Assembly: GCA_036505055.1 (NCBI GenBank)
Contig: DASXUE010000049.1
Span: 11,732-75,731 of the forward strand
Direction of reading: 5' to 3'
DNA from: Gemmatimonadales bacterium
Lineage (GTDB): Bacteria > Gemmatimonadota > Gemmatimonadetes > Gemmatimonadales > GWC2-71-9
DNA length: 64,000 nt
The position numbers and the translations under genes are program-made. Under the pieces are notes generated by a model. It was not told the origin of the DNA. It searched no databases and saw only the letters and a program-made list of their open reading frames with translations. Numbering within the stretch: the stretch's first letter is position 1; each line of letters begins with the position of its first letter. Of the stretch, positions 3,860 to 50,389 are shown in pieces.

Positions 3860-3895
3860 GGTATATTCCCCGGACCACGGGGAGGGACTTCGCAT

Positions 3896-4489: not shown

Positions 4490-4494
4490 GAGAA

Positions 4495-4583
4495 GGACGG
4501 TCTAAGACGGCCTAAGACGGTCCAGGGCGGTCAAGGACGATCGTTGACCGTCTTGGACCGTCCTGGACCGCCTTGGACCGCCC
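4495..4583. terminator. Long imperfect palindrome built from ~10-nt tandem units; likely a bidirectional terminator between convergent genes
   Basis: Left arm is GACGGTCTAA GACGGCCTAA GACGGTCCAG GGCGGTCAAG. Centre is GACGATCG. Right arm is TTGACCGTC TTGGACCGTC CTGGACCGCC TTGGACCGCC. About 31 of 39 arm positions are complementary. The right arm also encodes the last ~17 aa of the minus-strand TlpA-like gene. Confidence 0.5.
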
Positions 4584-5064
4584 TCGCAAGAGCCGCTTCG
4601 ATATCCTGGTCCGCCCCGACACCCGTATAGACCACCTTTCCTCGGGCGTCGAGCACCGCCACATCCGATGTCGTGGGCGCCTGGAAGGCGCGGGTGGCGC
4701 TGCCGTTCGCGTCCCACAGGAAGGTGAACGGCATCGGATGCCGCGCGAGGTGCCGGCGCACGGTGTTGGGGCTCTGATTCACGGCGACGGCGACGACGAG
4801 GAATTCCGCGCGGTCCCCGTACTTCTTCCGCGCCGCCTCCATCCGCGGCAGCAGCTCGGCGCAGATGGGGCACCACGTCGCCCAGAACTCAACGATCACC
4901 GGCTTCTTCCCCACCCAGCGCGCCAGCTCGACTGCGTTGCCGTCGAGGTCCTGGACCGTGACCGCGGGTGGCGTCTGGCCGACGGGAATGCCGACGACGT
5001 CGTCCTGCGCGGCGGCGAGGCTCGGCACGAGGAGTGCAACGAGGAGCGCCAGCCGCCTCACCAT
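4531..5064 (-). CDS. TlpA-like periplasmic thiol:disulfide oxidoreductase (thioredoxin fold)
   Basis: The internal ATG at 5064 gives signal peptide MVRRLALLVALLVPSLAAAQ. CxxC motif is WATWCPIC. The start overlaps the ccdA stop (ATGGTGA). The upstream 108 aa of the track ORF are Arg/Gly-rich and overlap ccdA. Confidence 0.85.
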   Translation of the reverse strand: MVRRLALLVALLVPSLAAAQDDVVGIPVGQTPPAVTVQDLDGNAVELARWVGKKPVIVEFWATWCPICAELLPRMEAARKKYGDRAEFLVVAVAVNQSPNTVRRHLARHPMPFTFLWDANGSATRAFQAPTTSDVAVLDARGKVVYTGVGADQDIEAALARAVQGGPGRSKTVNDRP

Positions 5065-5777
5065 ACCTGCCCCGCTTTGATGAAGTAGTATTGAGCCATC
5101 AGCAGTAGAACCACGCCCGCCGTCCTTTTGATCCATACCATCCAGGCGCCCGCACGCGGCAGCGCCGTCAGCGTTCCGGAGAACAGCCCGACCACGACCA
5201 GCAACGCGGTCATACCGAGCGAAAATGCGAACAGATAGACGAATCCGAGCACGGCGCTTTGGGTGCTCGCCACCCACGTCAGCACGGCGGCGAACGCCGG
5301 CGCGCCGCAGGGAGCCGCGACGATGCCCGAGGTCGCGCCGAGCAGAAAGACGGCTGGATAGGATCCCCCGCCCAGTCCCCCCGCCCACGCGGCGAGCCGG
5401 GCGGGCACGCGGATCGGGATCACATCGAGCATCGCGAGGGCGAACACGAGGAGCAGGTTACCGATCGCGAGGCGCGCCCACGGACTCGAGCCGATGGTGC
5501 CGAACAGCGAGCCCGTGAGCCCGGCGACGAGGCCCAGTATCGCGTAGAACAGCGCGAGGCCGGTCGCGTAGGTGAGTGTGAGCCCGACGGTGCGGCGCCG
5601 CGAGCGCCCGTCGGCGTCCACGCCGGCCAGCGCGCCCGCCGTGATGGGAATCATCGGATAGATGCAGGGGTTCAGGCTCGTCACGAGCCCGGCCGCGAAC
5701 AAGAGCGGCACCGCCACGAGGGGGCGGTGCTGCAGGGCATCGGAGATGCCGGAGAGGACGACGGCCAACGTGGCCAC
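5058..5777 (-). CDS. ccdA: CcdA/DsbD-family transmembrane thiol-disulfide electron transporter
   Basis: Polytopic membrane protein with the conserved LNPC and PCG motifs (SLNPCIYPMIP, AAPCGAPAF). GTG start. Confidence 0.85.
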   Translation of the reverse strand: MATLAVVLSGISDALQHRPLVAVPLLFAAGLVTSLNPCIYPMIPITAGALAGVDADGRSRRRTVGLTLTYATGLALFYAILGLVAGLTGSLFGTIGSSPWARLAIGNLLLVFALAMLDVIPIRVPARLAAWAGGLGGGSYPAVFLLGATSGIVAAPCGAPAFAAVLTWVASTQSAVLGFVYLFAFSLGMTALLVVVGLFSGTLTALPRAGAWMVWIKRTAGVVLLLMAQYYFIKAGQVW

Positions 5778-5804
5778 GGACGGGATAATAACGAATTATC
5801 TTTC

Positions 5805-5865
5805 CCGCAGGCGATGGAGTTCGCCTTCAACCGCCCATCCCAAGGGCTGATGACTCCTACCCGCA
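5805..5865 (+). promoter_or_regulatory. Fluoride riboswitch (crcB RNA motif)
   Basis: GGCGAUGGAGUUCGCC-UUC-AACCGCCC-AUCCCAA-GGGCUGAUGACUCCUAC closely matches the crcB motif (compare T. petrophila GGCGAUGAGGCCCGCCCAAACUGCCCUGAAAAGGGCUGAUGGCCUCUAC). It lies directly upstream of crcB, and an AT-rich putative promoter lies just 5' of it. Confidence 0.9.
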
Positions 5866-5889
5866 CCGACCGACGGGAGGAGTTTCTTC

Positions 5890-6246
5890 TTGAGAATCCT
5901 GTACATCGCACTCGCCGGCGTCGCCGGAACGCTCGCCCGCTATGGACTCGACGGCTGGGTCCAGGGGCGCGGCGGCACGCTCACGGTGAATCTGACCGGC
6001 TCCCTGGCCCTCGGTTTCATCATTCGCTACGCCACAGGCTCGATCGTCGTCTCGCCCGACGTGCGCGCCGCTCTCACGATAGGCTTCTGCGGCGCCTACA
6101 CGACGATGAGCACGTTCAGCTACGAAACCATGGCGCTGCTCTGGGATGGCGAGTATTGGCGGGCGGGACTCTACATGGGGGTCACCATTGCCGGATGCCT
6201 GATGGCGGTCGCGTTGGGAGCGGCGCTGGCCAACAAACTACTGTGA
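5890..6246 (+). CDS. crcB: Fluoride ion channel CrcB/FluC
   Basis: TTG start 9 nt after GGGAGG. Four TM helices. Signature GFCGAYTTMSTFSYE. Confidence 0.9.
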   Translation: MRILYIALAGVAGTLARYGLDGWVQGRGGTLTVNLTGSLALGFIIRYATGSIVVSPDVRAALTIGFCGAYTTMSTFSYETMALLWDGEYWRAGLYMGVTIAGCLMAVALGAALANKLL

Positions 6247-6253
6247 GCGACAT

Positions 6254-6592
6254 ATGACCGAACGATTTCGCGGTGAGCGCACGCTGATGCGCGTTTTCAT
6301 CGGCGAGAGCGACAAGTACGAAGGCAAGCCGCTGTATGAGGCCTTGCTGGAACGGTTCCGCAAGAGGGGCCTCGCCGGCGCCACCGTGCTGCGCGGCATC
6401 GCGGGGTTCGGCGCGAGCAGCAAGGTGCACACCGACAAGGTGCTACGCTTGTCACTCGACTTGCCGCTGATCATCGAGGTCGTCGAAGCCGAGGAGACGA
6501 TTCAGCAAGTTCTCCCCGATCTCGATGAGATGATCGGGGGTGGACTGATCACACTGGAGCGGGCGAATGTGATCCTGTATCGGCCCGCCTAA
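6254..6592 (+). CDS. DUF190 (PII-like) protein, commonly co-transcribed with crcB
   Basis: Sequence LMRVFIGESDKYEGKPLYEALLERFRKRGLAGATVLRGIAGFG... matches the DUF190 pattern. It lies 7 nt after crcB. Confidence 0.8.
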   Translation: MTERFRGERTLMRVFIGESDKYEGKPLYEALLERFRKRGLAGATVLRGIAGFGASSKVHTDKVLRLSLDLPLIIEVVEAEETIQQVLPDLDEMIGGGLITLERANVILYRPA

Positions 6593-37773: not shown

Positions 37774-38595
37774 ATGCTGCTCGAAGTGGACGGGGTTCGG
37801 CTGTTCACCCGTCGCGTCGGCACCGTCGGGGGGCCCCTCGCGATCGTGCTGCACGGCGGCCCCGGCGCCCACCACGACTACCTCCTTCCACAATACGATC
37901 GCCTGGCGACGGGGCGTGAGCTCTTCTACTACGACCAGCGCGGGGGGGGACAATCCCCCGTGCCGCGCGAGACGCCGGTCGGCTGGCGCGAGCACGTCGC
38001 CGACCTCGACGCGATTCGCGCGCACCTCGGTCTCGAGCGCGTGACGCTGTGCAGCTACTCCTGGGGCGGGCTGCTCGCCCTGCTCTACCTGCTCGAGCAC
38101 CCGCAGCGGGTCGAGCGTCTCGCCCTCGTGTCGCCGGCTTCCCCCACCGTGGCCTACCGGCGGCAGTTCGAGGAGGAGTTCGCGCGCCGCATGGCGGCGC
38201 CCGAGATCCAGCGCGAGCGCGAGGCGCTGCGCGCGAGCGGCGTGCACGATCAGCGCCGCGCCTTCGAGCTGGCCGTCGCCGGCTACTTCCGCGATTTCCG
38301 CGACGCGAAGCACCTGACGTCCTTCCGCGTCACCGCCCGCACCCAGCAGGCCGTCTGGGACAGTTTGGGGGAGTACGATCTCCGTCCTCGCTTGCGGGAC
38401 CTCGCATCCCGCATCTCGCTTCCCGCATCCCGCATCCTTCATGGCACGTTCGATCCCATCCCCATCGCCGGCTCTCGCGAGCTGGCGCAGCTGCTCCACG
38501 CCGATCTCATCGAGCTGCCCACCGGGCACTGCCCCCACGTCGAGGCGACGGAGGAGTTCGTAGGCGCGCTCGACGGATTTCTCCCCCGGTCGTGA
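37774..38595 (+). CDS. Alpha/beta hydrolase (S33 proline-iminopeptidase-like)
   Basis: HGGPG oxyanion motif, YDQRGGGQS and nucleophile elbow SYSWGG. It contains an in-frame heptamer-repeat copy (LASRISLPASRILHG). Confidence 0.8.
   Translation: MLLEVDGVRLFTRRVGTVGGPLAIVLHGGPGAHHDYLLPQYDRLATGRELFYYDQRGGGQSPVPRETPVGWREHVADLDAIRAHLGLERVTLCSYSWGGLLALLYLLEHPQRVERLALVSPASPTVAYRRQFEEEFARRMAAPEIQREREALRASGVHDQRRAFELAVAGYFRDFRDAKHLTSFRVTARTQQAVWDSLGEYDLRPRLRDLASRISLPASRILHGTFDPIPIAGSRELAQLLHADLIELPTGHCPHVEATEEFVGALDGFLPRS
38394..38440. repeat. Copy of the GCATCCC-heptamer repeat family, in-frame inside a CDS
   Basis: GCGGGACCTCGCATCCCGCATCTCGCTTCCCGCATCCCGCATCC. Confidence 0.7.
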
Positions 38596-39305
38596 GGCCC
38601 ACGCCGTTCGGGCTCGCTTTCGAGCACCTGGCCCGTGAGCGCTTTGCCGCAATCGCCGACGACGCGAACCGCGACCGCTTCGTGCTCCAGGAGCCGGTGG
38701 GCCGGCTGCTGCGCGAGATCGTGCCGGAGGATGCGGACGCTGACGGGCTCGAGGCTCACGTGCGGATGCTGCATCACGCCCATCGTCATTGGGCGTCGGG
38801 CGGGTGGGTGTACCGCGTCGGTGAGGCCGCGCTGCGCCGCGCGGCGGCGGGCGGGCCGATCGGCTCGCGTCTGCCCCACCCGGCGCTCTACCTCCAACTC
38901 CCCGACCTGCGAGTGTGGGGCGCGCCGACGGCCGAGGGCGGAGGTGCGCCGGAGCCGCTCGACGGCATGTTCGTCACGGAGACGAGCGAGCCCGGCGCCA
39001 TCGCGGTGCTGGGCATCTTTGGGATGCGGGAGGGCCGGCCCGGGTTCAGCGCGGTGGGCGTGGAGGGCCGCGCGGACGCAGACGATCCGTCGGCCGGTGA
39101 GTCGCTGATCGACGCGGCGCGCGACGACGGCAGCGCGCCGTTCACCCCGACGCTGGCCGGGGGCGCGGAGGCCGGGATCCACTCGCTGGCAAACGTGGGG
39201 GAGCTGCTCCTGCTCACGTGCCGGTTGTTGGCTCAGCTGCCCGCGACTCGGGATGCGGGAGGCGAGATGCGGGATGCGACGGAGCGCATGGTCGATGTCA
39301 GCTAG
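38592..39305 (+). CDS. Hypothetical protein
   Basis: GTG overlaps the upstream stop (GTGA). Amino-acid composition is coding-like and no motif is recognised. The C-terminal ~12 aa (RDAGGEMRDA...) are encoded by the left arm of a heptamer-repeat palindrome. Confidence 0.5.
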   Translation: MRPTPFGLAFEHLARERFAAIADDANRDRFVLQEPVGRLLREIVPEDADADGLEAHVRMLHHAHRHWASGGWVYRVGEAALRRAAAGGPIGSRLPHPALYLQLPDLRVWGAPTAEGGGAPEPLDGMFVTETSEPGAIAVLGIFGMREGRPGFSAVGVEGRADADDPSAGESLIDAARDDGSAPFTPTLAGGAEAGIHSLANVGELLLLTCRLLAQLPATRDAGGEMRDATERMVDVS

Positions 39306-39344
39306 GCAGGCGCGCATCCCGCTTCCCGCATCCCGCATCCCGGA
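39248..39344. repeat. Palindromic GGGATGC/GCATCCC heptamer-repeat element (REP-like hairpin)
   Basis: Left arm CGGGATGCGGGAGGCGAGATGCGGGATGCG (39249-39278) is 27/30 complementary to right arm CGCATCCCGCTTCCCGCATCCCGCATCCCG (39313-39342). The 34-nt loop contains the TAG stop of the upstream gene. Confidence 0.8.
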
Positions 39345-39360
39345 TTACGTTCGTCGTGAC

Positions 39361-40959
39361 ATGGATAAACACGCCGTTCGGTCGCTGCTCGAGCATGTCG
39401 CGGCGTTGCTCGAGCTCAGGGGCGAGGGCCCGGAGCGCGTGCGTGCCCACCAGGTCGCGGTGGAGCGCGAGCTGCTCGCGAGCGGCCGCTCCGACACGTT
39501 GGACGAGCTGCGCGAGCAGGTCCCCCCCGGCCTCGTCGAGATGCTTCGCATCCCCGGCCTCGGCGTGGCCAAGGTGCGCCAGATCCACGACCGGCTGCAC
39601 GTCGAATCACTCGCCGAGCTGGAGGATGCGGCGGGGGACGGCCGGCTCACGGGCCTGCCGCGCTTCGGACGCAGGACGGCGGAGAAGGTGCTTCGGGGCA
39701 TCGCCGCGCTGCGCCGGGACAGCACGTTTCGCCTGCTCCACCACGCCCTGGACGAAGCCCAGAGGATCGCGGCGGCGCTCGCGGCCGAGGGGGGCGTGCG
39801 CCGCGTCGAGATCGCCGGGAGTGTGCGGCGACGCCGGGAAATCATCCGCGACCTGGACTTCGTCGTGGTCGCGGGGAGCGGCAGCCGCGAAGCGCTCGTC
39901 CGGCGCCTGGGCGAGGTCCCGGGGGTCATCGAGTTCGTCGGGAAGGAAGGCGTCGTCACGCTCCGCTTCGCCTCGGGGTCGGTGGTGGACGTCTTCCTGG
40001 CGACACCGGACGACTTCGGCGTCACCTGGATTCGCGCCACGGGAGCGGCGCAGCACGTCGCCGACATCCAGGCGCGCCTCGAGGGCGGCGGCGGGCCGTG
40101 GCCCGACGAGGAGAGCGTGTACCGCGCCGCCGGGCTGCCGTGGATCGCGCCGGAGCTGCGCGAGGGCACGGGCGAAGTCGAGGCCGCTGCCGCGGGCCGG
40201 CTCCCGCGGCTCATCCAGCAGCGCGACGTGCGGGGCTTCCTCCACTGTCATACCAACTACTCCGACGGCAGCACCACGGTCGCCGAGTGGGCGACCGCGT
40301 GCCGCGACGCCGGGTACGATTGGGTCGGCATCACCGATCACAGCGAGTCGTCAACGTACGGGGGCGGCCTGCGGGCGGCGGACATCGCGCGGCAACACGC
40401 CGAGATCGACGCCGCGAACCGCCAGTTCGACGGGTTCCGAATCCTAAAGGGCGTCGAGGCGGACATTCTCGCCGACGGATCGCTCGATTACGGGCCGGCC
40501 GTGCTCGACCGGTTCGATTTCGTCATCGGCTCGATCCACACGCGCTTCGGCATGAGCGAGGGGGAGATGACCGCGCGCGTGCTCAAAGCGATGGACGACC
40601 CCCACATGACCATCCTCGGTCACCCGACGGGGCGGCTGCTGTTGTCGCGCGATCCCTATGCGATCGATCTGGAGCGCGTGTTCGAGCGCGCCGCCGACCG
40701 CGGCGTAGCCGTGGAGCTGAACGCCGACCCGCATCGCCTCGATCTCGACTGGCGCATGGTGCGCCGGGCGCGCGAGCTCGGGGTCACCATCTCGCTCGGC
40801 GCCGACGCGCACTCGATCGCCGGCATGAGTAATGTCGCCGTGGGCCTGGGCATCGCGCGCAAGGGCTGGCTCGAGGCGAGCGACGTGCTCAACAGCCGCG
40901 ACGCCGACGGATTCCTCGCGCACGCGCGCGGACGGGGGGGGCGGGCCGCCTACGCATGA
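39361..40959 (+). CDS. polX: Family X DNA polymerase with C-terminal PHP domain (PolX)
   Basis: Start at the internal ATG (MDKHAV...). HhH motif IPGLGVAKV, nucleotidyltransferase motif GSVRRRREIIRDLDFVV, and PHP motifs HCHTNYSDG, ITDHS and GADAH. Confidence 0.85.
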   Translation: MDKHAVRSLLEHVAALLELRGEGPERVRAHQVAVERELLASGRSDTLDELREQVPPGLVEMLRIPGLGVAKVRQIHDRLHVESLAELEDAAGDGRLTGLPRFGRRTAEKVLRGIAALRRDSTFRLLHHALDEAQRIAAALAAEGGVRRVEIAGSVRRRREIIRDLDFVVVAGSGSREALVRRLGEVPGVIEFVGKEGVVTLRFASGSVVDVFLATPDDFGVTWIRATGAAQHVADIQARLEGGGGPWPDEESVYRAAGLPWIAPELREGTGEVEAAAAGRLPRLIQQRDVRGFLHCHTNYSDGSTTVAEWATACRDAGYDWVGITDHSESSTYGGGLRAADIARQHAEIDAANRQFDGFRILKGVEADILADGSLDYGPAVLDRFDFVIGSIHTRFGMSEGEMTARVLKAMDDPHMTILGHPTGRLLLSRDPYAIDLERVFERAADRGVAVELNADPHRLDLDWRMVRRARELGVTISLGADAHSIAGMSNVAVGLGIARKGWLEASDVLNSRDADGFLAHARGRGGRAAYA

Positions 40960-41600
40960 CGGTGAAGACGAAGTCTCGCCCCGACGTAAAGAAGATCATC
41001 GCGCGCTTCGAGCGCGCCTACCCCGACGCCACCTGCGCCCTACACCACACGAGTGCGCTGGAACTCGTCGTCGCCACGATCCTGTCGGCACAGTGCACCG
41101 ACGCGCGCGTGAACATGGTCACGCCCGTGCTGTTCGCGAAATACCGGACGGCCGCGGACTACGCCGCCGCGGACCCCCGCGTACTCGAGCGTGAGATCCA
41201 GTCGACGGGGTTCTTCCGCAACAAGACCAAGTCGATCATCGGGATGGCGCAGGCGCTCGTGGAGCGCCACGGGGGCGAGGTCCCCGACACGATGGACGCG
41301 CTGACCGCCCTCCCCGGCGTCGGCCGCAAGACGGCCAACGTGATCCTCGGCACGTGGTTCAAGAAGAATGAAGGGGTCGTAGTGGACACCCACGTGCACC
41401 GCCTCACACGGCTCATGAAGCTCACCAAGCAGGACGATCCCGTGAAGATCGAGCGGGATCTCATGGCGCTGCTGCCGCGCGACAAGTGGACCTGGTGGTC
41501 GCATACGCTCATCCAGCACGGCCGTCAGGTGTGCATCGCGCGGCGGCCGAAATGCGAGGAGTGTGTGGTGAATCGGCTCTGCCCGAGTTCGCGGGTGTGA
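40956..41600 (+). CDS. nth: Endonuclease III
   Basis: ATGA overlap with polX. HhH-GPD motif LPGVGRKTANVILG. Fe-S loop is C-X6-C-X2-C-X5-C (CIARRPKCEECVVNRLC). Confidence 0.95.
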   Translation: MTVKTKSRPDVKKIIARFERAYPDATCALHHTSALELVVATILSAQCTDARVNMVTPVLFAKYRTAADYAAADPRVLEREIQSTGFFRNKTKSIIGMAQALVERHGGEVPDTMDALTALPGVGRKTANVILGTWFKKNEGVVVDTHVHRLTRLMKLTKQDDPVKIERDLMALLPRDKWTWWSHTLIQHGRQVCIARRPKCEECVVNRLCPSSRV

Positions 41601-41621
41601 AGCGTTTTACGACGCTACGTC

Positions 41622-41678
41622 GCTACGTTGTACGTCGTGTCTTCCGCGGTTCGTACAACGTACCGTCGTACAACGTAC
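41622..41678 (+). promoter_or_regulatory. Three copies of an 11-nt motif (one inverted, two direct) in the AT-richer leader of the downstream operon
   Basis: TACGTTGTACG is at 41624-41634. Its reverse complement CGTACAACGTA is at 41652-41662 and 41667-41677. The last copy ends 5 nt before the ATG. Confidence 0.4.
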
Positions 41679-41682
41679 AACT

Positions 41683-42840
41683 ATGACCGCCACTCTCCCG
41701 CCAATCGACCGTCCGTCGCTCATCGCCACCCGCCGCGACCTGCACCAGCATCCCGAGCTGGGGTTCGAGGAAACGCGTACCGCCACGCTCGCGGCCGAGC
41801 GGCTGCGCGCCCTCGGCTACGACGTACGGACGGGGGTGGGAAAAACGGGCGTCGTGGCCCTCAAGGCGGGCGACAACGGTCGCTGCGTCTTGCTGCGCGC
41901 GGATATGGACGCCCTCCCCATCGACGAAGCGAACGACGTCCCGTACCGGTCGAAGCATCCAGGCAAGATGCACGCCTGCGGCCACGACGGGCACGTGGCG
42001 ATCGGTCTCGAGGTGGCGCGCCGCCTGGCGGCGGCGCCGCTCCCGGGCAGCGTGAAGTTCGCGTTCCAGCCCGCCGAGGAAGTGTCGAATGGGGCGCGGG
42101 CGATGATCGACGCCGGCGTGCTGCGCGCCCCCGACGTCCATGCGGCGTTCGGCATCCACCTCTGGAACGATCTGCCGGTGGGCACCGTGGGGATCATGCC
42201 GGGACCGATGATGGCGTCGGTCGACGAGTTCGAGATCACGATCCTCGGCCGCGGTGGCCACGCGGCCGCGCCGCACCAGACGGCGGACCCGGTGCTCGTG
42301 GCGGCGCACGTCGTCACCGGACTGCAGAGCCTCGTCTCCCGCCGCCGCAATCCGCTGGAAGAGGGCGTCGTCTCGGTCACCCAGATGCAGGCGGGTCACG
42401 CGTTCAACGTGATCCCGGGACGCGCCGACCTGCGGGGCACCGTGCGCACCTTCGGCGGAAAATTTTGGGAGCAGGCGCCGGCGCTGATCGACGAGACGGC
42501 GCAGGGCATCGCGAGCGCCTTCGGGGCTCGGGCTGAAGTGCGCTACCGGCGCCTCAGCGGACCGACGGTGAACGATCCCGCGATGGCGGCGCTGATGGCG
42601 GACGTCGCCGTCGAAACGGTGGGCCGGGACAACGTGAAGGGCGGCGTGCGCACCATGGGCGGTGAGGACATGTCGTACTTCCTGCAGCAGGTCCCGGGGT
42701 GCTTCGCCTTCGTCGGCTCGGCACCCAAGGGCGCGAAGGGGGCCCCGCACCATAGTGCGACTTTCGACATCGACGAAGAGTCGCTGGTGATCGGTTCGGA
42801 GCTCCTGGCGCGAGTGGCGGTGCGGTACCTCGGCGGGTAG
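41683..42840 (+). CDS. M20-family amidohydrolase (cytoplasmic paralog)
   Basis: Motifs LHQHPELGFEE, LLRADMDALP, MHACGHDGHVAIGL and FQPAEE. Confidence 0.9.
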   Translation: MTATLPPIDRPSLIATRRDLHQHPELGFEETRTATLAAERLRALGYDVRTGVGKTGVVALKAGDNGRCVLLRADMDALPIDEANDVPYRSKHPGKMHACGHDGHVAIGLEVARRLAAAPLPGSVKFAFQPAEEVSNGARAMIDAGVLRAPDVHAAFGIHLWNDLPVGTVGIMPGPMMASVDEFEITILGRGGHAAAPHQTADPVLVAAHVVTGLQSLVSRRRNPLEEGVVSVTQMQAGHAFNVIPGRADLRGTVRTFGGKFWEQAPALIDETAQGIASAFGARAEVRYRRLSGPTVNDPAMAALMADVAVETVGRDNVKGGVRTMGGEDMSYFLQQVPGCFAFVGSAPKGAKGAPHHSATFDIDEESLVIGSELLARVAVRYLGG

Positions 42841-42849
42841 CTTCGCCCG

Positions 42850-43554
42850 ATGCCGCCTAGTGCGACGCACGATGGGTTCGTGCTGCTCGGCACGCTCGCC
42901 GGGTTGGCCGTGTGGCTGTACGAATCCCGGCGCCGCCAGGTGCTGGACGAGCGGCTCGTGTGGATCCTCGTCGGAGCCCTGGTGTGCGGCGCGATCGGCG
43001 CGCGGCTCAGCACCGTGTGGCGCTACGTCGCCCTCGAGCCCGCACCCAGCGTGGGTGGTTTCCTCCTCACGAGCGGCCGCAGCATCCTCGGCGGGCTGGC
43101 GGGCGCTTACGCCGGCGTGCTCCTCACCAAACGGCTGGTGGGCTATCGCGAGCCCACAGGGGATGTCTTCGCGCCCGCCGTCGCCCTGGGAATGGCTATC
43201 GGGCGCTGGGGCTGCTTCTTCACGGAGCTTCCAGGCACGCCGACCCAGCTCCCCTGGGCTGTCTCCTTTTATGACGGCGTGCCGAGGCACCCCTCCTTCA
43301 TTTATGAGATCCTGTTCCAGGCCGGGGCCTTCGCGCTGCTGTGGTGGGCGCGGCCGCGGATCCCGCGGCGGGGCGATCTCTTCAAGATCTATCTCCTTCT
43401 GTATGCGGTGTTCCGTTTCGGCGTCGAGTTCGTGCGGGGCAACGACATGGTCTGGAAGGGCCTGACCCGCGCTCAGCTTTTTCTCATTCCGGCGACGCTC
43501 ACGCTCGGCGCGTACTTCGTGAGCCGGCGAGCGCTCGCGACGCAGGAGGTGTGA
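42850..43554 (+). CDS. lgt: Short Lgt-family (prolipoprotein diacylglyceryl transferase-like) membrane protein
   Basis: Lgt-like blocks: GRSILGGLAG, DVFAPAVALGMAIGRWGCFF, RHPSFIYE (E. coli has RHPSQLYE) and FRFGVEFVRG. At 234 aa it is shorter than E. coli Lgt. Confidence 0.65.
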   Translation: MPPSATHDGFVLLGTLAGLAVWLYESRRRQVLDERLVWILVGALVCGAIGARLSTVWRYVALEPAPSVGGFLLTSGRSILGGLAGAYAGVLLTKRLVGYREPTGDVFAPAVALGMAIGRWGCFFTELPGTPTQLPWAVSFYDGVPRHPSFIYEILFQAGAFALLWWARPRIPRRGDLFKIYLLLYAVFRFGVEFVRGNDMVWKGLTRAQLFLIPATLTLGAYFVSRRALATQEV

Positions 43555-43946
43555 ACGTGGATCCCCACCCGCCACCGCCACCAGACCGGTCCTTCGCGAA
43601 GAAATCCTGGGGGATCGTCGCCGGGCTCGCCGTGTTCATGCCGATCAACATGGTGGTGCTGTCCGTGTTCACCGGACGCCGCTCGCTCGCTGCCGGACTC
43701 GTGTTTGCCGCGGCGACCGTGGGGGTGACCGCCCTGCTCTATCGCCTGCGCTGGCGCTGGCCTGCCATCGGCATCTCGGTCGGGTTCGCGGTCATGACGA
43801 TCGTGACGGGCGGAGTGTGCACGCTGTTCCGGTACAAGGAGTACGGGGAGTTTGCAGGGCTCTTTTACCTGCTGATCGTCGTGCTCGCGGTCGCCGCCGC
43901 CGGCGTCGCGAGCGCCGTCGAGGCGGGCAGGAGCGGAAGGGCCTAG
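43551..43946 (+). CDS. Small hypothetical membrane protein (4 predicted TM helices)
   Basis: GTG overlaps the lgt-like stop. Hydrophobic segments alternate with short loops. Confidence 0.5.
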   Translation: MNVDPHPPPPPDRSFAKKSWGIVAGLAVFMPINMVVLSVFTGRRSLAAGLVFAAATVGVTALLYRLRWRWPAIGISVGFAVMTIVTGGVCTLFRYKEYGEFAGLFYLLIVVLAVAAAGVASAVEAGRSGRA

Positions 43947-43952
43947 CGAGCG

Positions 43953-45527
43953 ATGCCCGGCGCACCGCTCCGCGGCGACCGCATTCTCCGGTACGTGAGC
44001 GCGTTTTGCCCCGCGTGCCACGCCGAGCGGCCCGACCGCCCGCTCGCCGAGGTGGAGCGGCTGAGCGGGTACCTCGCCGAGGAAGCCGGGCATGTGTGGT
44101 TGGTCCGTGGCTGCCCGCGCCACGGCAGGATCGCGACGCTCTACGACGAGTCGCCCGAGATCCTGCGCTACCTCGAGGAGTGGACCGCGCCGACCAAGCA
44201 GCACACGCCGGACACGCCCGGAAACTACGCCGGCGTGCCGGCCGCCTACCTCGCCGGATTGGGCGAGATGCAGACGCAGCACACCTGCATCCTGCTGGAA
44301 GACATCACCGAACAGTGCAACCTGCGCTGCCCCACCTGCTTCGCGGACTCGTCCCCGTCGCACACCGGGGTCGTCGCGGTCGACGATGTGCTGGCCAACA
44401 TCGACCAGCGGTTGGCGCGCGAGCACGGGCGGATCGACGTGCTGATGCTCTCGGGGGGCGAGCCGACGGTGCACCCGCACCTCGTCGAGATCCTCACGGC
44501 GGTCATGGAGCGCAATATCGTCCGCATCCTGATCAACACGAACGGGATCCAGATCGCCAAGAGCGACATGCTGCTCGACTTCCTGGCGCGCCACAACTCG
44601 CGGATCGAGGTCTACCTCCAGTTCGACGGCTTCAGGCTCGAGACGCACCGCCACCATCGCAACGCGGACCTGCGCCGTCTCAAGCAGGCCGCGGTGGAGC
44701 GGCTCAGCGGCGCGGGCGTATTCACGACGCTCACGATGACGGCGGCGCTGGGCGTGAACGACGACGAGATCGGCGCCGTCGTCCGCCACGGTCTCGGGAC
44801 GCCGTTCGTCGGCGGGATTTCGATCCAGCCGCAGTTCGGCTCGGGGCGCTCGGCGCCGATCGATGCGCGCCGCCGCCTCACCCACACCGGCGTGCTGGCG
44901 CGGCTCGGACCGCAGACCGGCGGGCTCGTCACCTGGCGCGACCTCACCGCGCTCCCCTGCTCGCACCCGCACTGCTGCAGTGTGGGCTACCTCCTCAAGA
45001 CCGATCGCGGCGAGTGGCGTTCGCTGGTCGGCATCGTGGGGCACGACCGGTTGAAGCAGCATCTCGATCTGGTCGCGAACCGCATCGCCGACCGCGAGAT
45101 CCCGGCCGAGCTGCGGGCGCTCGTCAAGGAATCGTTTCTCGGCCTGCTGTCCGAGCAGAGCTCGCTCACGCATCCGACGATCGCGGAGCTGTTCCGCAAC
45201 ATCTGTGAGAACTGCGACCTTGGCCTGTCGACGCTGCTGCGCCTGGCCAAGGACGCGCTGCTCGGCGAGCGCGACAAGATGCGCCGCTTCTTTGCCGAGC
45301 GGATCAAGCGAATCACCGTGAAGCCGTTCATGGACGTCCACACGATGCTCGAGGAGCGCTTGCTGCAGTGCTGCGTCCACGTCGGCACCGCGAGCGACGC
45401 GCAGCACCAGTGCGCGCCGTTCTGCGCAGTGCAGGCGTGGCCCGCGCTCGCCCGCATGAAGCTCGCGGCGCGCGCCGCGCCCGCGGCAGCCGCGGCCCCC
45501 CTCGCCCTCGCCGTGCCGCCGGCTTAG
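43953..45527 (+). CDS. Radical SAM enzyme with an N-terminal rubredoxin-like Cys/His knuckle pair and a Cys-rich C-terminal domain (possible Tes/GDGT-MAS-like lipid C-C bond-forming family)
   Basis: Radical-SAM motif is CX3CX2C (EQCNLRCPTCFA). N-terminal knuckles are FCPAC...X34...CPRHG. GGEPT-type motif LSGGEPTVHP. C-terminal cysteines: PCSHPHCC, CENC, CCVH, CAPFC. Confidence 0.8.
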   Translation: MPGAPLRGDRILRYVSAFCPACHAERPDRPLAEVERLSGYLAEEAGHVWLVRGCPRHGRIATLYDESPEILRYLEEWTAPTKQHTPDTPGNYAGVPAAYLAGLGEMQTQHTCILLEDITEQCNLRCPTCFADSSPSHTGVVAVDDVLANIDQRLAREHGRIDVLMLSGGEPTVHPHLVEILTAVMERNIVRILINTNGIQIAKSDMLLDFLARHNSRIEVYLQFDGFRLETHRHHRNADLRRLKQAAVERLSGAGVFTTLTMTAALGVNDDEIGAVVRHGLGTPFVGGISIQPQFGSGRSAPIDARRRLTHTGVLARLGPQTGGLVTWRDLTALPCSHPHCCSVGYLLKTDRGEWRSLVGIVGHDRLKQHLDLVANRIADREIPAELRALVKESFLGLLSEQSSLTHPTIAELFRNICENCDLGLSTLLRLAKDALLGERDKMRRFFAERIKRITVKPFMDVHTMLEERLLQCCVHVGTASDAQHQCAPFCAVQAWPALARMKLAARAAPAAAAAPLALAVPPA

Positions 45528-45537
45528 GAGGACCCGT

Positions 45538-45798
45538 ATGGAACCGGTCCGCGCCACCGCGTACGACCCCGTGCGCTTCTGCATCTTCACCACCATCGGC
45601 CTGCTCGCGTGGGTGCTGGGCCCGCCGGTGGTCGTCGCCGCCCTGTCCGGCGTGGGGCTCTGGGCGTACGCGCGCGCGCGCCGCCAGGGCCTCGCGCGCA
45701 GCCGCTGCGTCTTGGGCGATACGCGGATCGTCATGGCCTACCTCGCCGCCGCGTGCCTCTTGGGAATCGTGGTGACCATCCGGGGGCTGATGGGATAA
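45538..45798 (+). CDS. Small hypothetical membrane protein (2-3 TM helices)
   Basis: 86 aa, hydrophobic, 10 nt downstream of the radical SAM gene. Confidence 0.5.
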   Translation: MEPVRATAYDPVRFCIFTTIGLLAWVLGPPVVVAALSGVGLWAYARARRQGLARSRCVLGDTRIVMAYLAAACLLGIVVTIRGLMG

Positions 45799-45835
45799 GC
45801 CGGGCCTTTAGCCCACGGATACATTTCCCCTAGCC

Positions 45836-47803
45836 ATGTCGAACCAGCTTGCCGCCGAATCGTCGGCCTACCTCAAGTCCGCCGCCCATCAGCCCGTGCA
45901 CTGGCTCCCCTGGGGAGAGGCGGCGTTCGCCCGGGCGCGGGCCGAGGACAAGCCGATCCTCCTCGACATCGGCGCGGTCTGGTGCCACTGGTGCCACGTG
46001 ATGGACGGCGAATCGTACGAGGACGCCGCCGTCGCGGAGGTCCTGAACCGCGAGTTCGTGTGCATCAAGGTCGATCGCGACGAGCGGCCCGATGTGGATA
46101 CGCGCTACCAGCGAGCCGTGCAGGCGCTCTCCGGCCAGGGTGGTTGGCCGCTCACCGCGTTTCTCACACCCGAGGGCGAGGTGTTCTTCGGCGGTACGTA
46201 CTTCCCACCCGAAGGGAATCACTACGGCCGCCCCGGATTCGGGAGTGTGTTGCGCGAGATCGCGCGCGCCTACCGCGAGGAGCGGGAGAAGGTCGCGGGC
46301 AACGCGCGCGCCATCCGGCAGCACGTGACGGAGTCTCTGAACGAAGCGAAAGCCGGCGAGGTGAGCGCCGCGATCGTCGCCCACGCCGCCAACCAGATGG
46401 CGCGGCTGTTCGACATCCGGTACGGCGGGTTCGGCGCCGCGCCCAAGTTCCCGCACCCCGCGGCGTGCGAGTTCCTGCTGGCGCGCTGGCACGACACCAA
46501 GCTCGACTGGCAGCGCGACGTGGTCGAGCGGACGCTCACGGCGATGGCGAAAGGCGGCATCCGCGACCACCTGGGGGGCGGCTTCCACCGCTACGCCGTG
46601 GACGAGCGCTGGATCGTGCCGCATTTCGAGAAGATGTCGTACGACAACTCCGAGCTGCTCAAGGCGTACCTCTCCGCCTACGCCGCCCTCGGCACGCCGC
46701 TGTTCCGTGAGGTGGCGAGCGGCATCGTCGACTGGGTGCTCGAGGTGCTGTCGGACGGAGCCGCATTCTCCACGTCCCAGGACGCGGACGTCGCCTTCGG
46801 CGACGACGGCGACTACTGGACGTGGACGCTGGAGGAAGCAAAGGCGGAACTAACGGCGCGAGAAGGCGCGGTGGTTGCGCGTGTCTTTGACATCGCGGAA
46901 ACCGGGGAGATGCATCACAACCCCAAGAAGAATGTGCTCTGGTGGAAGCACGACCCCTCGGGCGACGACGAATGGCCGATCCTGCGCGCGGCCGTCGCCA
47001 AGCTCAAGGCCGCGCGCGACCGCCGCACCGCGCCGTACGTCGACCGCGCGGCCTACGTGAATTGGAACGCAATGATGGCCGCGGCGTTCCTGCAGGCGGG
47101 CGCGGTGCTGGACCGGCCGGAGTGCAATGCGCTCGCGCTCAAGGTCCTGGAGCGGCTCTGGGGGACGTGGGACGGGGGACGAGGGATGGGGCACGTCATT
47201 GGCCGCGAGGAGCCCTGGGGTCTCCTCGATGACAACGTGCAGGCGGCCGCTGCTTTCCTCGACGCCTACGAAGCAACCGGCAATGCGGTATGGCTCGAGC
47301 GCGCCGAGACGGTGATGTCCTTGTGCGATCGCCTCCACTGGGACGAGGCCGGTGGGGGGTATTTCGATGTGGCTCGCGGCGACCTCGCCTACCTCGGCAC
47401 GAAGGGCAAGCCTGTCCAGGACGCCCCCACGCCGTCGCCCAACGGCGTCGCCGCGCTCGTGCTCGCACGGCTCGCCGCGCTGACCGACAAGCCGGAGTGG
47501 CGCACCCGGCTGGACCGGCAGCTCGCGGCCTTCGCGGGAGGGGCACAGGAACTGGCGCTGTACGGTGCCACGCTGCTCCGCGCCGTCGACTGGGCGGTGC
47601 ACCCCGTGACGCGAATCGAGGTCGCCGGGCCCTCGGGCGACGGTCCGGCGTGCGCGATGCACCTGCTGGCGCTGCAGACCTACCGACCGCGCAGAGCGGT
47701 CGTGCGCACCGTGGCCGAGCGGCCCCGCGCGACGGTCTGCGTGGGGACGTCGTGCTCCCTCCCGGTCGAGGCGCCCGGCGCGCTGGCGGAGCTCCTCGGG
47801 TGA
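45836..47803 (+). CDS. Thioredoxin-domain / DUF255 protein (YyaL/SSP411-like)
   Basis: N-terminal motif KPILLDIGAVWCHWCHVMDGESY. The long C-terminal (alpha/alpha)6-type region is typical of the family. Confidence 0.85.
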   Translation: MSNQLAAESSAYLKSAAHQPVHWLPWGEAAFARARAEDKPILLDIGAVWCHWCHVMDGESYEDAAVAEVLNREFVCIKVDRDERPDVDTRYQRAVQALSGQGGWPLTAFLTPEGEVFFGGTYFPPEGNHYGRPGFGSVLREIARAYREEREKVAGNARAIRQHVTESLNEAKAGEVSAAIVAHAANQMARLFDIRYGGFGAAPKFPHPAACEFLLARWHDTKLDWQRDVVERTLTAMAKGGIRDHLGGGFHRYAVDERWIVPHFEKMSYDNSELLKAYLSAYAALGTPLFREVASGIVDWVLEVLSDGAAFSTSQDADVAFGDDGDYWTWTLEEAKAELTAREGAVVARVFDIAETGEMHHNPKKNVLWWKHDPSGDDEWPILRAAVAKLKAARDRRTAPYVDRAAYVNWNAMMAAAFLQAGAVLDRPECNALALKVLERLWGTWDGGRGMGHVIGREEPWGLLDDNVQAAAAFLDAYEATGNAVWLERAETVMSLCDRLHWDEAGGGYFDVARGDLAYLGTKGKPVQDAPTPSPNGVAALVLARLAALTDKPEWRTRLDRQLAAFAGGAQELALYGATLLRAVDWAVHPVTRIEVAGPSGDGPACAMHLLALQTYRPRRAVVRTVAERPRATVCVGTSCSLPVEAPGALAELLG

Positions 47804-48771
47804 ACCGCCGCATCCTCGGCCGCACCGGCTTGCCGGTGAGCGAGATCGGGTTCGGGGGCTGGGCGATCGGCGGGAACGCGTACGGCAACTCGTACGGTCC
47901 CACGGACGACGCCGAGGCGAAGCGCGCCGTCCGGCGCGCCTACGAGCTGGGGTGCAACTTCTTCGACACCGCCGATGTGTATGGACACGGCCATTCCGAG
48001 ACGCTGATCGGGGAGGCGCTGTCCGACGTGCGCGACCAGGTGATCATCGCGACGAAGGTGGGGGGAAACTTCTACAACCGGGACGTCCATCCGCTATTCC
48101 GCGAGCGCGTGTCGCAGGCCGTGGGCCGCCCGCTCGACGAGATCGAGGCGGACGCGATCCTGCCGGTGACGCACGACGCCAACTTCACGCCGGCCTACCT
48201 GCGGTTCGCCGTGGAGCGTTCCCTCGACCGTCTGGGCACCGACTACGTGGACCTGCTGCAGCTGCATAATCCGTCCCTGACCGTGATCGCGACCATGGAG
48301 ACGTACGAGGTGTTAGAGGAGCTGAAGCGGGACGGGCGGATCCGGTTCTACGGCGTGTCCGTGCATCCGCCGGAGGAGGGCATCGCGGCGATCAATGCGA
48401 CGATGCCCGACACCGTGCAGATCGTGTATAACCTGGCCCGGCGCGAGGCGGAGGACGCGTTTTTCCCGGCGGCCCGCGCAGCCAGCGTCGGCGTGATCGC
48501 CCGAGAGCCGCTCGCCAACGGCTTCCTGGCGGGCAGGTACGCGCCCGACAGCAGCTGGGAGCGCGGGGACATCCGGGGCCGGATGCCCCGCCCCTACATC
48601 GCCCAGATCACCGCGTTGGGCCAGCGGGTCAAGGAGCTGGCCGACAAGTCGGGGCTGACGGCGGCGCAATTGGCGCTCAAGTTCGTGTTGGACCAGAGCG
48701 ACGTCGCCGTCGTGATCGTGGGCATGAAAACGGTCCAGCAGGTCGACGAGAACCTCAACACGGGGATGTAG
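47800..48771 (+). CDS. Aldo/keto reductase
   Basis: GTGA overlap with the upstream gene. Motifs LGRTGLPVSEIGFGGW, NFFDTADVYGHGHSE and YVDLLQLHNP. Confidence 0.9.
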   Translation: MNRRILGRTGLPVSEIGFGGWAIGGNAYGNSYGPTDDAEAKRAVRRAYELGCNFFDTADVYGHGHSETLIGEALSDVRDQVIIATKVGGNFYNRDVHPLFRERVSQAVGRPLDEIEADAILPVTHDANFTPAYLRFAVERSLDRLGTDYVDLLQLHNPSLTVIATMETYEVLEELKRDGRIRFYGVSVHPPEEGIAAINATMPDTVQIVYNLARREAEDAFFPAARAASVGVIAREPLANGFLAGRYAPDSSWERGDIRGRMPRPYIAQITALGQRVKELADKSGLTAAQLALKFVLDQSDVAVVIVGMKTVQQVDENLNTGM

Positions 48772-49221
48772 ATGCCCAACAAGAAAGCCGTGATCGATAC
48801 GGTGAAGGGCGCGATCGAGCTGGAGCTGTTCGCCGACGAAGCCCCGAACACCGTCGCCAACTTCGAGAAGCTCGCCAACTCCGGCTTCTACGACGGAACG
48901 AAGTTCCACCGCGTGATTCCGAACTTCATGATCCAGGGCGGCGACCCTTACTCGAAGACGGGCAAGGGCCGGGTGGGGACGGGGGGTCCGGGATATACGA
49001 TCAAGTGCGAGACGCAACGCAACACGTACAAGCACGTCGCCGGCACCCTGTCGATGGCGCACGCCGGCAAGGACACCGGCGGCAGCCAGTTCTTCATTTG
49101 CCACTCGGCCCAACCGCACTTGGACGGCGTTCACACCGTCTTCGGACAGGTCGCCAAGGGCCAGGATGTGGTGAACAAGATTGCCGCGAACGACGAAGTC
49201 ACGTCGATTAGAGTCAGCTAA
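48772..49221 (+). CDS. Cyclophilin-type peptidyl-prolyl cis-trans isomerase
   Basis: Motifs [34 protein letters not shown] and VFGQV. Confidence 0.95.
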
Positions 49222-49240
49222 CCTCCTGCGGAGTGTTGCC

Positions 49241-50389
49241 ATGCGTTCCATTGTTTCGTCTCTTGCATTTGTGCTTCTCGCCTCGCCGCTCGCCGCCCAG
49301 GAGAGCGGAGCGTTCGTCGTCCGGCTCGGCGCCGACACCCTGTCGCTCGAGCAGTACACGCGCACCGCGACGCAGCTGCGCGGCGAGTACGTGATCCGCG
49401 CCCCCCGCAGTGTGCATCGCATCTACACGGCGGACCTGAACCCTGACGGGTCGATTCGCCGCTACGAGCTCATCACGCACAACATCGGCGGCGGTCCCGG
49501 TCCGGCGGAGACGAAGGTGACGGCGGATTTCATCGGTGATACCGTGGTGCTGGTCTCGCCCCGCGGCGACAGCACGGTCACCCAAAAGGTCGCGGTCCCA
49601 CGCGGGACGTACCCGTTCACGCTGCACGTGTACGGCTTGTTCGAGCAGATCGCGCGCCAGGCGCGCGCAGCCGGAAAAGACAGCGTAGCCTTCACCGCCC
49701 TCGCGTCTTCGGATCGCACGAGCGGTGGCGTCGTGCGCAGGCGCGGCGCAGACACCCTCACGCTGATGTTCAATCAAGGGCAGCTCAACGGCCTCGGGCC
49801 GTTCACCTTCCGCCTCGATCCGCAGAGCCGGCTCGTCTGGCTCACGGGCAGGGGCAGCACGGTGCAGGTGGACGTCGAGCGCGTCGCGTCCGTGCCGATG
49901 GCGCAGGCCGGTCCGATGTTCGCGAACCGCCCGCTCGGCCAGCTGTCCCCGCGCGACACCGCCCGGGCCACGATCGGCGGCGCGAGCGTGTGGATCGACT
50001 ATAGTCGCCCATCCCGCCGGGGACGCGAGATCTTCGGCGCCCTCGAGCCGTCGAACAAGGTGTGGCGCACGGGTGCCAATGCCGCCACGCAGCTCAGCAC
50101 GCCCATCGACCTCGTGATCGGCGGCGCAACCGTCCCGGCAGGCAAGTACACGCTCTGGACGCTTCCCGCACCGGGCGGCTGGAAGGTCATCATCAATAAG
50201 CAATCGGGTCAATGGGGAACCGAGTATCAGCAGGAGCAGGATCTCGTGCGGGTGGACGCAAAGGTCGAGACCCTTGGGACACCGGTCGAGCAGTTCGTGA
50301 TCGCCTTCGAGCCGGTAGGGACAACGCCCGCGGTCATCACGTTCACGTGGGACAAGACTCGGTACACGGTCCCGGTCTCGAAGAAATAG
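49241..50389 (+). CDS. Secreted protein with a C-terminal DUF2911-like domain
   Basis: The internal ATG gives signal peptide MRSIVSSLAFVLLASPLAAQ. C-terminal sequence is WRTGANAATQLSTPIDLVIGGATVPAGKYTLW. Confidence 0.6.
   Translation: MRSIVSSLAFVLLASPLAAQESGAFVVRLGADTLSLEQYTRTATQLRGEYVIRAPRSVHRIYTADLNPDGSIRRYELITHNIGGGPGPAETKVTADFIGDTVVLVSPRGDSTVTQKVAVPRGTYPFTLHVYGLFEQIARQARAAGKDSVAFTALASSDRTSGGVVRRRGADTLTLMFNQGQLNGLGPFTFRLDPQSRLVWLTGRGSTVQVDVERVASVPMAQAGPMFANRPLGQLSPRDTARATIGGASVWIDYSRPSRRGREIFGALEPSNKVWRTGANAATQLSTPIDLVIGGATVPAGKYTLWTLPAPGGWKVIINKQSGQWGTEYQQEQDLVRVDAKVETLGTPVEQFVIAFEPVGTTPAVITFTWDKTRYTVPVSKK

Follow-up and report, generated by a model that had tools for sequence, protein, structure and literature searches.

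The 64-kb window analyzed here, 64,000 nucleotides (nt) of contig DASXUE010000049.1 from a Gemmatimonadales bacterium with a G+C content of ~70%, carries a compact module of four genes, all on the plus strand. The list of open reading frames (ORFs) and their translations gives these, in order, as an Lgt-like protein, a small variable protein, an enzyme of the radical S-adenosylmethionine (SAM) type resembling the tetraether synthase Tes, and a membrane protein that we call TM86 (Table 1). A preliminary description of this DNA had proposed a membrane-lipid remodeling system; its four plus-strand ORFs are present where it placed them, and every motif it quoted is found in the translations, namely GRWGCFF, RHPSFIYE and EFVRG in the Lgt-like protein, and FCPAC...CPRHG, CX3CX2C, PCSHPHCC, CENC, CCVH and CAPFC in the radical SAM protein. 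The intergenic gaps it gave, -4, 6 and 10 nt, are right for the originally listed gene starts, although the first probably needs amending: an AGGAGG box at 43544-43549 lies 7 nt 5' of GTG 43557 and just 1 nt 5' of GTG 43551, and because of this spacing gene 2 more likely begins at 43557, leaving a gap of +2 nt in place of a 4-nt overlap. An AGGAGG also precedes the TM86 ATG at 45538. By Kyte-Doolittle hydropathy, four hydrophobic spans are found in the gene 2 product, two in TM86 and none in the radical SAM protein, which should therefore be a soluble enzyme, either cytoplasmic or peripheral.

Table 1. Position, strand and assignment of the module genes, their flanking genes and a nearby repeat (window coordinates).
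Feature	Position	Strand	Remarks
Lgt-like integral membrane protein	42850-43554	+	234 aa, 'GRxGC' subtype of Lgt family
Small variable membrane protein (gene 2)	43557-43946	+	129 aa (start more likely); 131 aa if start 43551
Tes/GDGT-MAS-like radical SAM enzyme	43953-45527	+	524 aa, PF04055 + PF23545
TM86 membrane protein (gene 4)	45538-45798	+	86 aa, conserved family with two invariant Cys
M20 amidohydrolase	41683-42840	+	PF01546, TIGR01891; 9-nt gap to Lgt-like gene
DUF255/thioredoxin-domain protein	45836-47803	+	PF03190 E 3e-69; 37 nt past TM86
Inverted repeat	41616-41670		19-nt arms, 17-nt spacer, 89% complementary

On the evidence of both its sequence and its predicted fold, the radical SAM protein is a true full-length homolog of GDGT-MAS/Tes from Methanocaldococcus jannaschii (MJ0619), which is its sole full-length relative with a known structure. 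The preliminary description had offered this kinship, and it is borne out. Pfam reports PF04055 (E 7e-19) together with PF23545, the MJ0619-type N-terminal zinc ribbon (E 1.6e-8), and residues 34-493 align with PDB entry 7TOL (GDGT-MAS) at E 5e-32. A Foldseek search with an AlphaFold2 model of moderate confidence (predicted local distance difference test score 65.5, predicted template modeling score 0.70) retrieves 7TOM at E 9e-21 and 7TOL at E 1e-20, with 535-539 aligned columns and template modeling scores of 0.55-0.59; the runner-up, SkfB, follows at E 2.6e-6. Identity to GDGT-MAS in the structural alignment is ~20%. In NCBIfam and PADLOC, no known non-lipid clade claims the protein: NCBIfam maturase models match at 27-40 bits and over the core only (residues ~110-278), and PADLOC returns only a generic radical-SAM-core match to pVip (residues 118-207, 31-42 bits).

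Conservation of cysteines was computed over 81 sequences of the radical SAM family, in which 16 Cys are invariant or nearly so (91-100%). Ligand assignments for GDGT-MAS are those of PMC9433317, and their transfer to the window protein is by alignment alone. The mononuclear rubredoxin-like iron site of GDGT-MAS, C9X2C12X20C33X2H36 (PMC9433317), is predicted to be kept as C19, C22, C54 and H57, all invariant, as are C122, C126 and C129 of the radical SAM cluster motif CX3CX2C. Toward the C terminus, where GDGT-MAS holds an auxiliary [4Fe-4S] cluster by three Cys and the labile Met439 (PMC9433317), the invariant M460 (in FMD), C473/C474 and C491 align with FMD...CC...C of MJ0619 and are candidate ligands. 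The N-terminal [4Fe-4S] cluster of GDGT-MAS, bound by C73, C77, C80 and a His within GCPxDCGxCPxH (PMC9433317), has no such counterpart: the corresponding region of the window protein reads PDTPGNYAGVPAAYLAGLGEMQTQHTC, without CX3CX2C, and shows the pattern PD..GN....P..Y..GL.EMQTQHTC. The same motif is missing from the related representatives P0121, P0122 and P0126, and present in MJ0619 and most other homologs. Tyr459 of MJ0619 is replaced by Val (CCIHY versus CCVHV), a change given low weight because Tyr459 variants of GDGT-MAS reportedly kept activity. Four further cysteines, C342, C418, C421 and C487, are conserved and largely clade-specific, and could ligate a relocated cluster. Thus the Tes-like layout seen in the preliminary description stands for the rubredoxin-like site and the C-terminal ligands, but not for the N-terminal C73/C77/C80 motif or Tyr459, and the enzyme looks like a divergent relative lacking the N-terminal cluster motif rather than a Tes.

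Curated family models place the protein likewise. It scores 151.7 bits with the Tes model NF045702, under the 450-bit cut-off (sister-clade representatives, introduced below, score 147-194 bits), and 197.9 bits with the TrsS model NF045646, its best NCBIfam score, again under the cut-off of 490 bits; it belongs to neither family. What it shares with Tes/GDGT-MAS (MJ0619; 7TOL, 7TOM) is the architecture of the whole chain and the predicted four-domain fold: an N-terminal CX2C...CX2H, the CX3CX2C motif, and the C-terminal FMD...CC...C with its labile-Met position. In addition to the differences in score, identity and residues given above, it departs from the archaeal enzyme in being bacterial, in aerobes, and in being partnered with an Lgt-like protein and small Cys proteins. 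TrsS is a member of the same superfamily, from which the window protein differs in score and in having no selenocysteine; no function for TrsS was found in the literature examined, leaving aside Haft & Tolstoy 2025. A third comparison, by description only, is with Mss of Thermotoga, for which the same sp3-sp3 tail coupling has been proposed on bacterial acyl lipids (PMC13159169, PMC13459092). Sahonero-Canavesi et al. (2022) describe Mss as only remotely related to Tes and found only in anaerobes, and the passages of the Mss literature at hand make no mention of an Lgt-like partner.

Relatives of the radical SAM protein are numerous: at E<=1e-10 and with clustering at 90% identity, there are more than 2,600 protein clusters, and species-representative genomes hold at least 526 matching stretches. 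The best 80 of these at least 526 genomic relatives are 66-77% identical and come from Gemmatimonadota, Chloroflexota, Acidobacteriota (Blastocatellia, Thermoanaerobaculia), Acidimicrobiia and cultured actinomycetes, among them Nocardia, Mycobacterium/Mycolicibacterium, Dactylosporangium, Nonomuraea and Microbispora. At 93 of the 94 family loci with enough flanking DNA to judge the neighbor, an Lgt-like gene lies beside the radical SAM gene, on its 5' side and on the same strand. A sister clade, represented by P0126 and 41-45% identical in its radical SAM protein, has a different order, in which the radical SAM gene comes first, then Lgt-like (31-39% identical), then one or two small membrane proteins bearing a zinc ribbon, and last a TM86 homolog; here the Lgt-like gene lies 3' of the radical SAM gene at 16 of 18 loci. 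In a neighbor-joining tree without bootstrap values, the window family forms one clade with P0121, P0122 and P0126. The Bacteroidota plasmids of Chondrinema litorale and Persicobacter psychrovividus extend the pattern, encoding, in this order, an Lgt-like protein (GRIGC), a radical SAM protein 32% identical to that of the window, and a membrane protein of 59-64 aa; their radical SAM protein is another branch (nearest representative P0202, at 58%) and retains the N-terminal cluster motif as GCPYDCGLCPDH. The idea that association with Lgt goes with loss of the N-terminal cluster was abandoned on this account, this clade having both GCPYDCGLCPDH and an Lgt-like partner.

The module is thus kept together across at least five phyla: Gemmatimonadota, Chloroflexota, Acidobacteriota, Actinomycetota and Bacteroidota. 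The arrangement, which is far from chance, is repeated at more than 110 independent loci across several phyla; chance adjacency was considered and ruled out, since the two genes are paired in 93/94 and 16/18 loci and stay together where gene order is altered. The identity of the radical SAM protein to its window counterpart also co-varies with that of the Lgt-like protein to its own (Pearson r 0.88, n=110). The synteny check set by the preliminary description was therefore passed decisively. The link between the two genes is ancient and specific, and comparative genomics strongly supports a functional link between a member of a glycerolipid-handling transferase family and a Tes-like radical enzyme. 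De novo ORF clustering over 81 loci yielded no further widely conserved neighbor.

The mainstream bacterial clade of Tes-like genes is organized otherwise. Five of its members (four chromosomal, one at a plasmid locus) have no Lgt-like neighbor; in four of these five loci, whose genes carry the N-terminal cluster motif, a class I SAM methyltransferase lies directly 3'. The paired loci are L162 5001-7246, L163 5001-7396, L164 5001-7789 and L167 4001-6369, and thioredoxin, DsbD or CcdA genes are often nearby. A Tes-like gene with a class I methyltransferase looks like a different, also uncharacterized, two-gene unit. By extension, the chemistry of the window module might be of a non-lipid kind, small-molecule or organometallic, as could also be the case for TrsS and for this methyltransferase-linked clade, with the module's Lgt-like protein in some unrelated membrane role. 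That TrsS rather than Tes gives the best NCBIfam score (198 versus 152 bits) speaks for such an extension, as does the first annotation of MJ0619 as a pterin methyltransferase (Pfam name HMPTM), and the methyltransferase pairing itself suggests non-coupling functions within the superfamily. Even so, both scores are far under their cut-offs and neither name transfers, while the window clade is never found with a methyltransferase neighbor and has instead a member of a phospholipid-handling family together with membrane proteins; we regard this as improbable.

Some copies of the module sit on large plasmids in mycobacteria. Plasmid pS2b of Mycobacterium avium subsp. hominissuis (L165, NZ_CP076860.1) encodes the Lgt-like protein, a small Cys protein and the radical SAM enzyme at 3231-6551, flanked by a RES/Xre toxin-antitoxin pair and an IS110 transposase, and the module on plasmid pJCM12687 of M. 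branderi (L169) adjoins an IS200/IS605 tnpA-tnpB pair. The radical SAM proteins of these mycobacterial plasmids are 69-70% identical to that of the window, and a TM86 homolog was not detected at either locus. Together, they suggest horizontal mobility of the module. On the Chondrinema litorale plasmid (L166), the gene just 5' of the Lgt-like gene, at 3679-4194, encodes a 171-aa secreted protein whose IDTGSS motif is typical of retropepsin-like aspartic proteases; no counterpart of this protein was seen 5' in Persicobacter (L168). The signal peptidase of the canonical lipoprotein pathway, Lsp, is likewise an aspartic enzyme.

Assignment of gene 1 to the Lgt family, as first proposed, is secure: PF01790 (LGT) matches residues 11-218 at E 1.2e-35, covering profile positions 18-233 of 240 and so nearly the whole length of the protein. 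The equivalog model lgt (TIGR00544) gives 78.4 bits, under its cut-off of 118.9, and the protein is, at 234 aa, shorter than E. coli Lgt. It is 100% identical to a protein from a Gemmatimonadales MAG. Relative to the latter, R143 (R119 in the window protein), G154, Y235, R239, E243, R246, the HPS..YE block and the E151 region are kept, and R143, G154, R239 and E243 are conserved in 70-71 of 71 family sequences as well as in the sister clade and Bacteroidota. Asn146 of Lgt, by comparison, has become Cys (C122, nt 43213-43215), as it has in 70 of the 71 family members and in every one of the 20 sequences from the sister clade and Bacteroidota, giving the signature GRxGC. His103 is Leu in the window and L, V, M, F or I across Tes-associated Lgt-like proteins, and Tyr26 is not conserved; in one alignment an invariant His takes its place, a correspondence that another alignment shifts. 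Mutagenesis of E. coli Lgt reportedly found N146 essential, with Y26 and H103 also said to be important. The Lgt blocks named in the preliminary description are accordingly retained as motifs, but two residues reported as required in E. coli, N146 and H103, are not. Because the replacement at position 146 is invariant rather than drifting, it argues for an active site that has been re-tooled, rather than for a decaying paralog.

Other details set the Lgt-like proteins apart from one another and from housekeeping Lgt. Most family members carry a ~23-residue periplasmic insertion with two Cys before the HPS block, which the window protein lacks, and sister-clade proteins have an extra Cys pair right after the signature (GRIGCFxNxCCYG). 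Unlike a housekeeping singleton lgt, the window gene adjoins a radical SAM gene, and the 64-kb window has no second Lgt-like ORF and so no canonical lgt. Gene 1 thus encodes a distinct GRxGC subtype of Lgt-like protein; both small Cys-bearing proteins belong integrally to the module, and the M20 amidohydrolase upstream is outside it. Overall, the module would appear to work most like Tes/GDGT-MAS joined to Lgt, its enzymes being members of neither curated family. The library searched yielded no account of such a module and no paper that connects an Lgt-family gene, or an Lgt paralog, with a Tes-like radical SAM gene.

The two small proteins, described at first simply as membrane proteins, turn out to be telling. 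In gene 2, an invariant Cys88 (nt 43818-43820) closes the third of the four hydrophobic spans, which follows a basic patch, RLRWRW. The family motif comprises the basic patch, ~21 hydrophobic residues (G.G...GW....) and G-x-C, usually followed by a tail of 3-20 residues. The family is otherwise so variable that BLAST fails to connect its members across phyla: close relatives of window gene 2 are 38-52% identical by tblastn, profiles built from the proteins in the equivalent gap of other loci match it at E 2e-10 and 4e-4, and such a profile recovers a gene 2 member at 53 loci, the window included. Small proteins of the sister clade, present as two paralogs in some loci, combine an N-terminal zinc ribbon and a basic stretch with a helix ending in G-[ASGT]-C, and those of Bacteroidota (59-64 aa), with the motif GAGVC/GTGIC, end in ...KKSKPKAAKVLFIIAGIYFVIGAGVCGSFF and ...GTGICGSLLS. 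The positive-inside rule predicts that the invariant Cys sits where a helix running from inside to outside has its outer end, as a lipobox cysteine does, and the sister-clade motif is close to the canonical lipobox [LVI][ASTVI][GAS]C (PMC12462473). Gene 2 behaves like a substrate and not like an enzyme subunit, because it is hypervariable, is duplicated in some loci and has one invariant residue.

TM86 is a well-conserved single-copy family, without a match among Pfam, NCBIfam or PADLOC families, that is recognizable by the motifs DPxRxC..TT..L.AW and GL..S.C.L.D.R. Two stretches of the protein are hydrophobic, and two of its cysteines are invariant: C15 (nt 45580) and C57 (nt 45706). A tblastn search places TM86 3' of the radical SAM gene at 85 of 96 family loci, and sister-clade homologs with both Cys are detected by hidden Markov model at E 1e-7 to 2e-3. 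Taken together with the lipobox-like arrangement in gene 2, the invariant Cys of both small proteins suggest that the acceptor is a protein, in place of the plain membrane proteins of the preliminary description, and this changed which mechanism seems most likely.

A radical SAM gene beside small, variable, sometimes duplicated Cys-bearing ORFs is also the classic pattern of a peptide that is ribosomally synthesized and modified post-translationally (RiPP). Conceivably, then, the small protein is itself the target of the radical SAM enzyme, which might, for instance, form a thioether or cross-link at the invariant Cys, and the Lgt-like protein lipidates or holds the peptide; core-domain matches to the sactipeptide/SPASM maturases AlbA, SkfB and PqqE, weak as they are, would fit. 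These matches, however, cover the generic core (residues ~112-278), and the full-length match to GDGT-MAS is better by ~15 orders of magnitude. Pfam at E<=0.01 reports no SPASM, twitch or RiPP recognition element domain in the protein, and if the positive-inside rule holds here, the invariant Cys would be at the outer face, beyond reach of a cytoplasmic Fe-S enzyme. RiPP-like maturation is for these reasons unlikely.

The reading we prefer, at a probability of roughly 40%, is that the module is a lipoprotein-type system of a dedicated kind, the diacylglyceryl lipid of which undergoes radical modification at its tails. The Lgt-like protein of the GRxGC subtype would bind a glycerophospholipid via the retained Lgt arginines and put its diacylglyceryl unit on the single invariant Cys of the small variable protein. 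Either before or after this transfer, the soluble Tes-like enzyme would take hydrogen from a terminal acyl carbon, the retained C-terminal [4Fe-4S] cluster then serving the coupling of two chain ends, and the product would be a macrocyclic or membrane-spanning lipid that is finally protein-anchored. TM86 would be a fixed subunit, probably a membrane dock for the soluble radical SAM enzyme. Homologies, kept and replaced residues, and co-inheritance are the observations on which we infer substrate, acceptor, step order and product. Protein cysteines are the only characterized acceptors of Lgt-family enzymes (PMC12462473), and the partnership of Lgt-like and radical SAM proteins persists across three clades, including where gene order has changed.

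Several points weigh against this reading. The Lgt-like protein is without N146 and H103, and may not be a transferase at all. In the window clade, the residue before the invariant Cys is V, I, F or L, which is non-canonical for a lipobox. Bacteroidota radical SAM proteins are without equivalents of M460, C473 and C491; should all clades share one chemistry, this may be something other than Tes-type coupling at the C-terminal cluster. TM86 was not detected within 6 kb at 11 of 96 family loci, Mycobacterium among them, nor in Bacteroidota. Topology presents a conflict of its own, between a cytoplasmic radical SAM enzyme on the one hand and an outer-leaflet Lgt site with the predicted acceptor Cys on the other; this would be eased if the radical step came first, on a cytoplasmic-leaflet phospholipid, with a tail-coupled, spanning product then exposing one of its head groups at the outer leaflet for transfer, although that is speculation. 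For the carriers in Nocardia and Mycobacterium, we know of no report of diacylglycerol lipids that are macrocyclic or span the membrane, and every step of the scheme is argued from sequence and modeling.

The free-lipid remodeling favored by the preliminary description is a possible, if somewhat doubtful, alternative. Here, the radical SAM enzyme would be a bacterial, aerobe-compatible analog of Tes and Mss that joins the tails of ordinary phospholipids to give diabolic-acid-type spanning or macrocyclic lipids; the Lgt-like protein would be a subunit that binds or presents lipid, or else a transferase to a non-protein acceptor, and the small proteins would be structural. Free lipids are indeed what the characterized relative, Tes/GDGT-MAS, acts on (PMC9433317, PMC8941075), and the same is true of Mss, which is only remotely related (PMC13159169); the window enzyme, for its part, conserves both the fold and the ligands of the C-terminal cluster. 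Replacement of Lgt residues could, moreover, mean that protein transferase activity has been lost. Distribution enters the argument as well, given that the radical SAM family is found in Blastocatellia, Thermoanaerobaculia and other Acidobacteriota metagenome-assembled genomes (MAGs). A screen by Sahonero-Canavesi et al. at E<=1e-50 and >=30% identity found no Mss homologs in the Acidobacteria screened and Tes homologs in 3 of 14 iso-diabolic-acid producers, leaving most of these producers without an enzyme. The window family would probably fail such thresholds, because it matches MJ0619 at E 5e-32 and with ~20% identity in structural alignment, and would thus probably have been missed by published screens for Tes homologs.

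What free-lipid remodeling leaves unexplained is the one invariant lipobox-like Cys of a hypervariable, sometimes duplicated protein in three clades, and an invariant Cys, with no drift, at Lgt position 146. To our knowledge, spanning lipids have also not been reported from carriers such as Nocardia, Mycobacterium, Nonomuraea and Dactylosporangium.

Were the lipoprotein-type mechanism true, it would join two chemistries that have until now been studied apart, the thioether lipidation of proteins typical of Lgt and the radical coupling of inert lipid tails typical of Tes, and would establish modified membrane proteins or lipids of a new class. Pressed further, it would amount to a new kind of lipoprotein, in which an Lgt paralog S-lipidates an internal or C-terminal lipobox-like Cys and a Tes-type enzyme cross-links the lipid into a macrocyclic or spanning anchor; we put this forward only tentatively. 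If true, protein-bound, tail-coupled lipids would be made by aerobic soil bacteria and some mycobacteria. [quoted passage not shown] Cultured carriers exist in Nocardia salmonicida NBRC 13393, Mycolicibacterium llatzerense, Nonomuraea spiralis and Dactylosporangium spp.

Genes flanking the module in the window appear to be local additions. The M20 amidohydrolase, which is CpsA/DoeB-like and under model cut-offs, is syntenic at loci L110, L114, L118 and L151 only, being absent from other loci, and the DUF255 gene at L110, L111, L112, L114 and L118 only. Both were therefore rejected as core members, their synteny being confined to close Gemmatimonadales relatives, where they may constitute a lineage-specific operon extension. 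The suggestion that M20 shares a transcript with the module holds to the extent that, with a 9-nt gap, the two probably form one operon in this genome; M20 is nevertheless outside the conserved module. Also set aside was a defense system, which is without PADLOC support: the only matches are those of the radical SAM core to pVip, with none for the other three proteins. No sigma-70-like promoter site was found in 41000-48500, where terminator-like matches are within shuffle expectation, and an Rfam scan of 38000-50000 gave no RNA element or riboswitch at E<=0.1.

Repeats occur upstream of this string of genes. The inverted repeat at 41616-41670, with arms TACGTCGCTACGTTGTACG and CGTACAACGTACCGTCGTA, takes up most of the 82 nt that separate nth from the M20 gene, and could be either the nth terminator or an operator for the genes from M20 to DUF255. 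Further upstream, arrays of a 7-nt unit (CGCATCC/CGCTTCC, complement GGATGCG) are found at 38389-38449 and 39249-39345. Within the second array, the copies at 39249-39278 and 39313-39342 make up an inverted repeat of 30 nt, with 90% complementarity and a 34-nt loop, that overlaps the listed start (ATG 39253) of a PolX-like ORF, the true start of which may be further downstream. A copy at 38393-38432 is complementary to 39249-39288, 816 nt apart, and the arrays may represent a repetitive extragenic palindromic (REP)- or miniature inverted-repeat transposable element (MITE)-like repeat.

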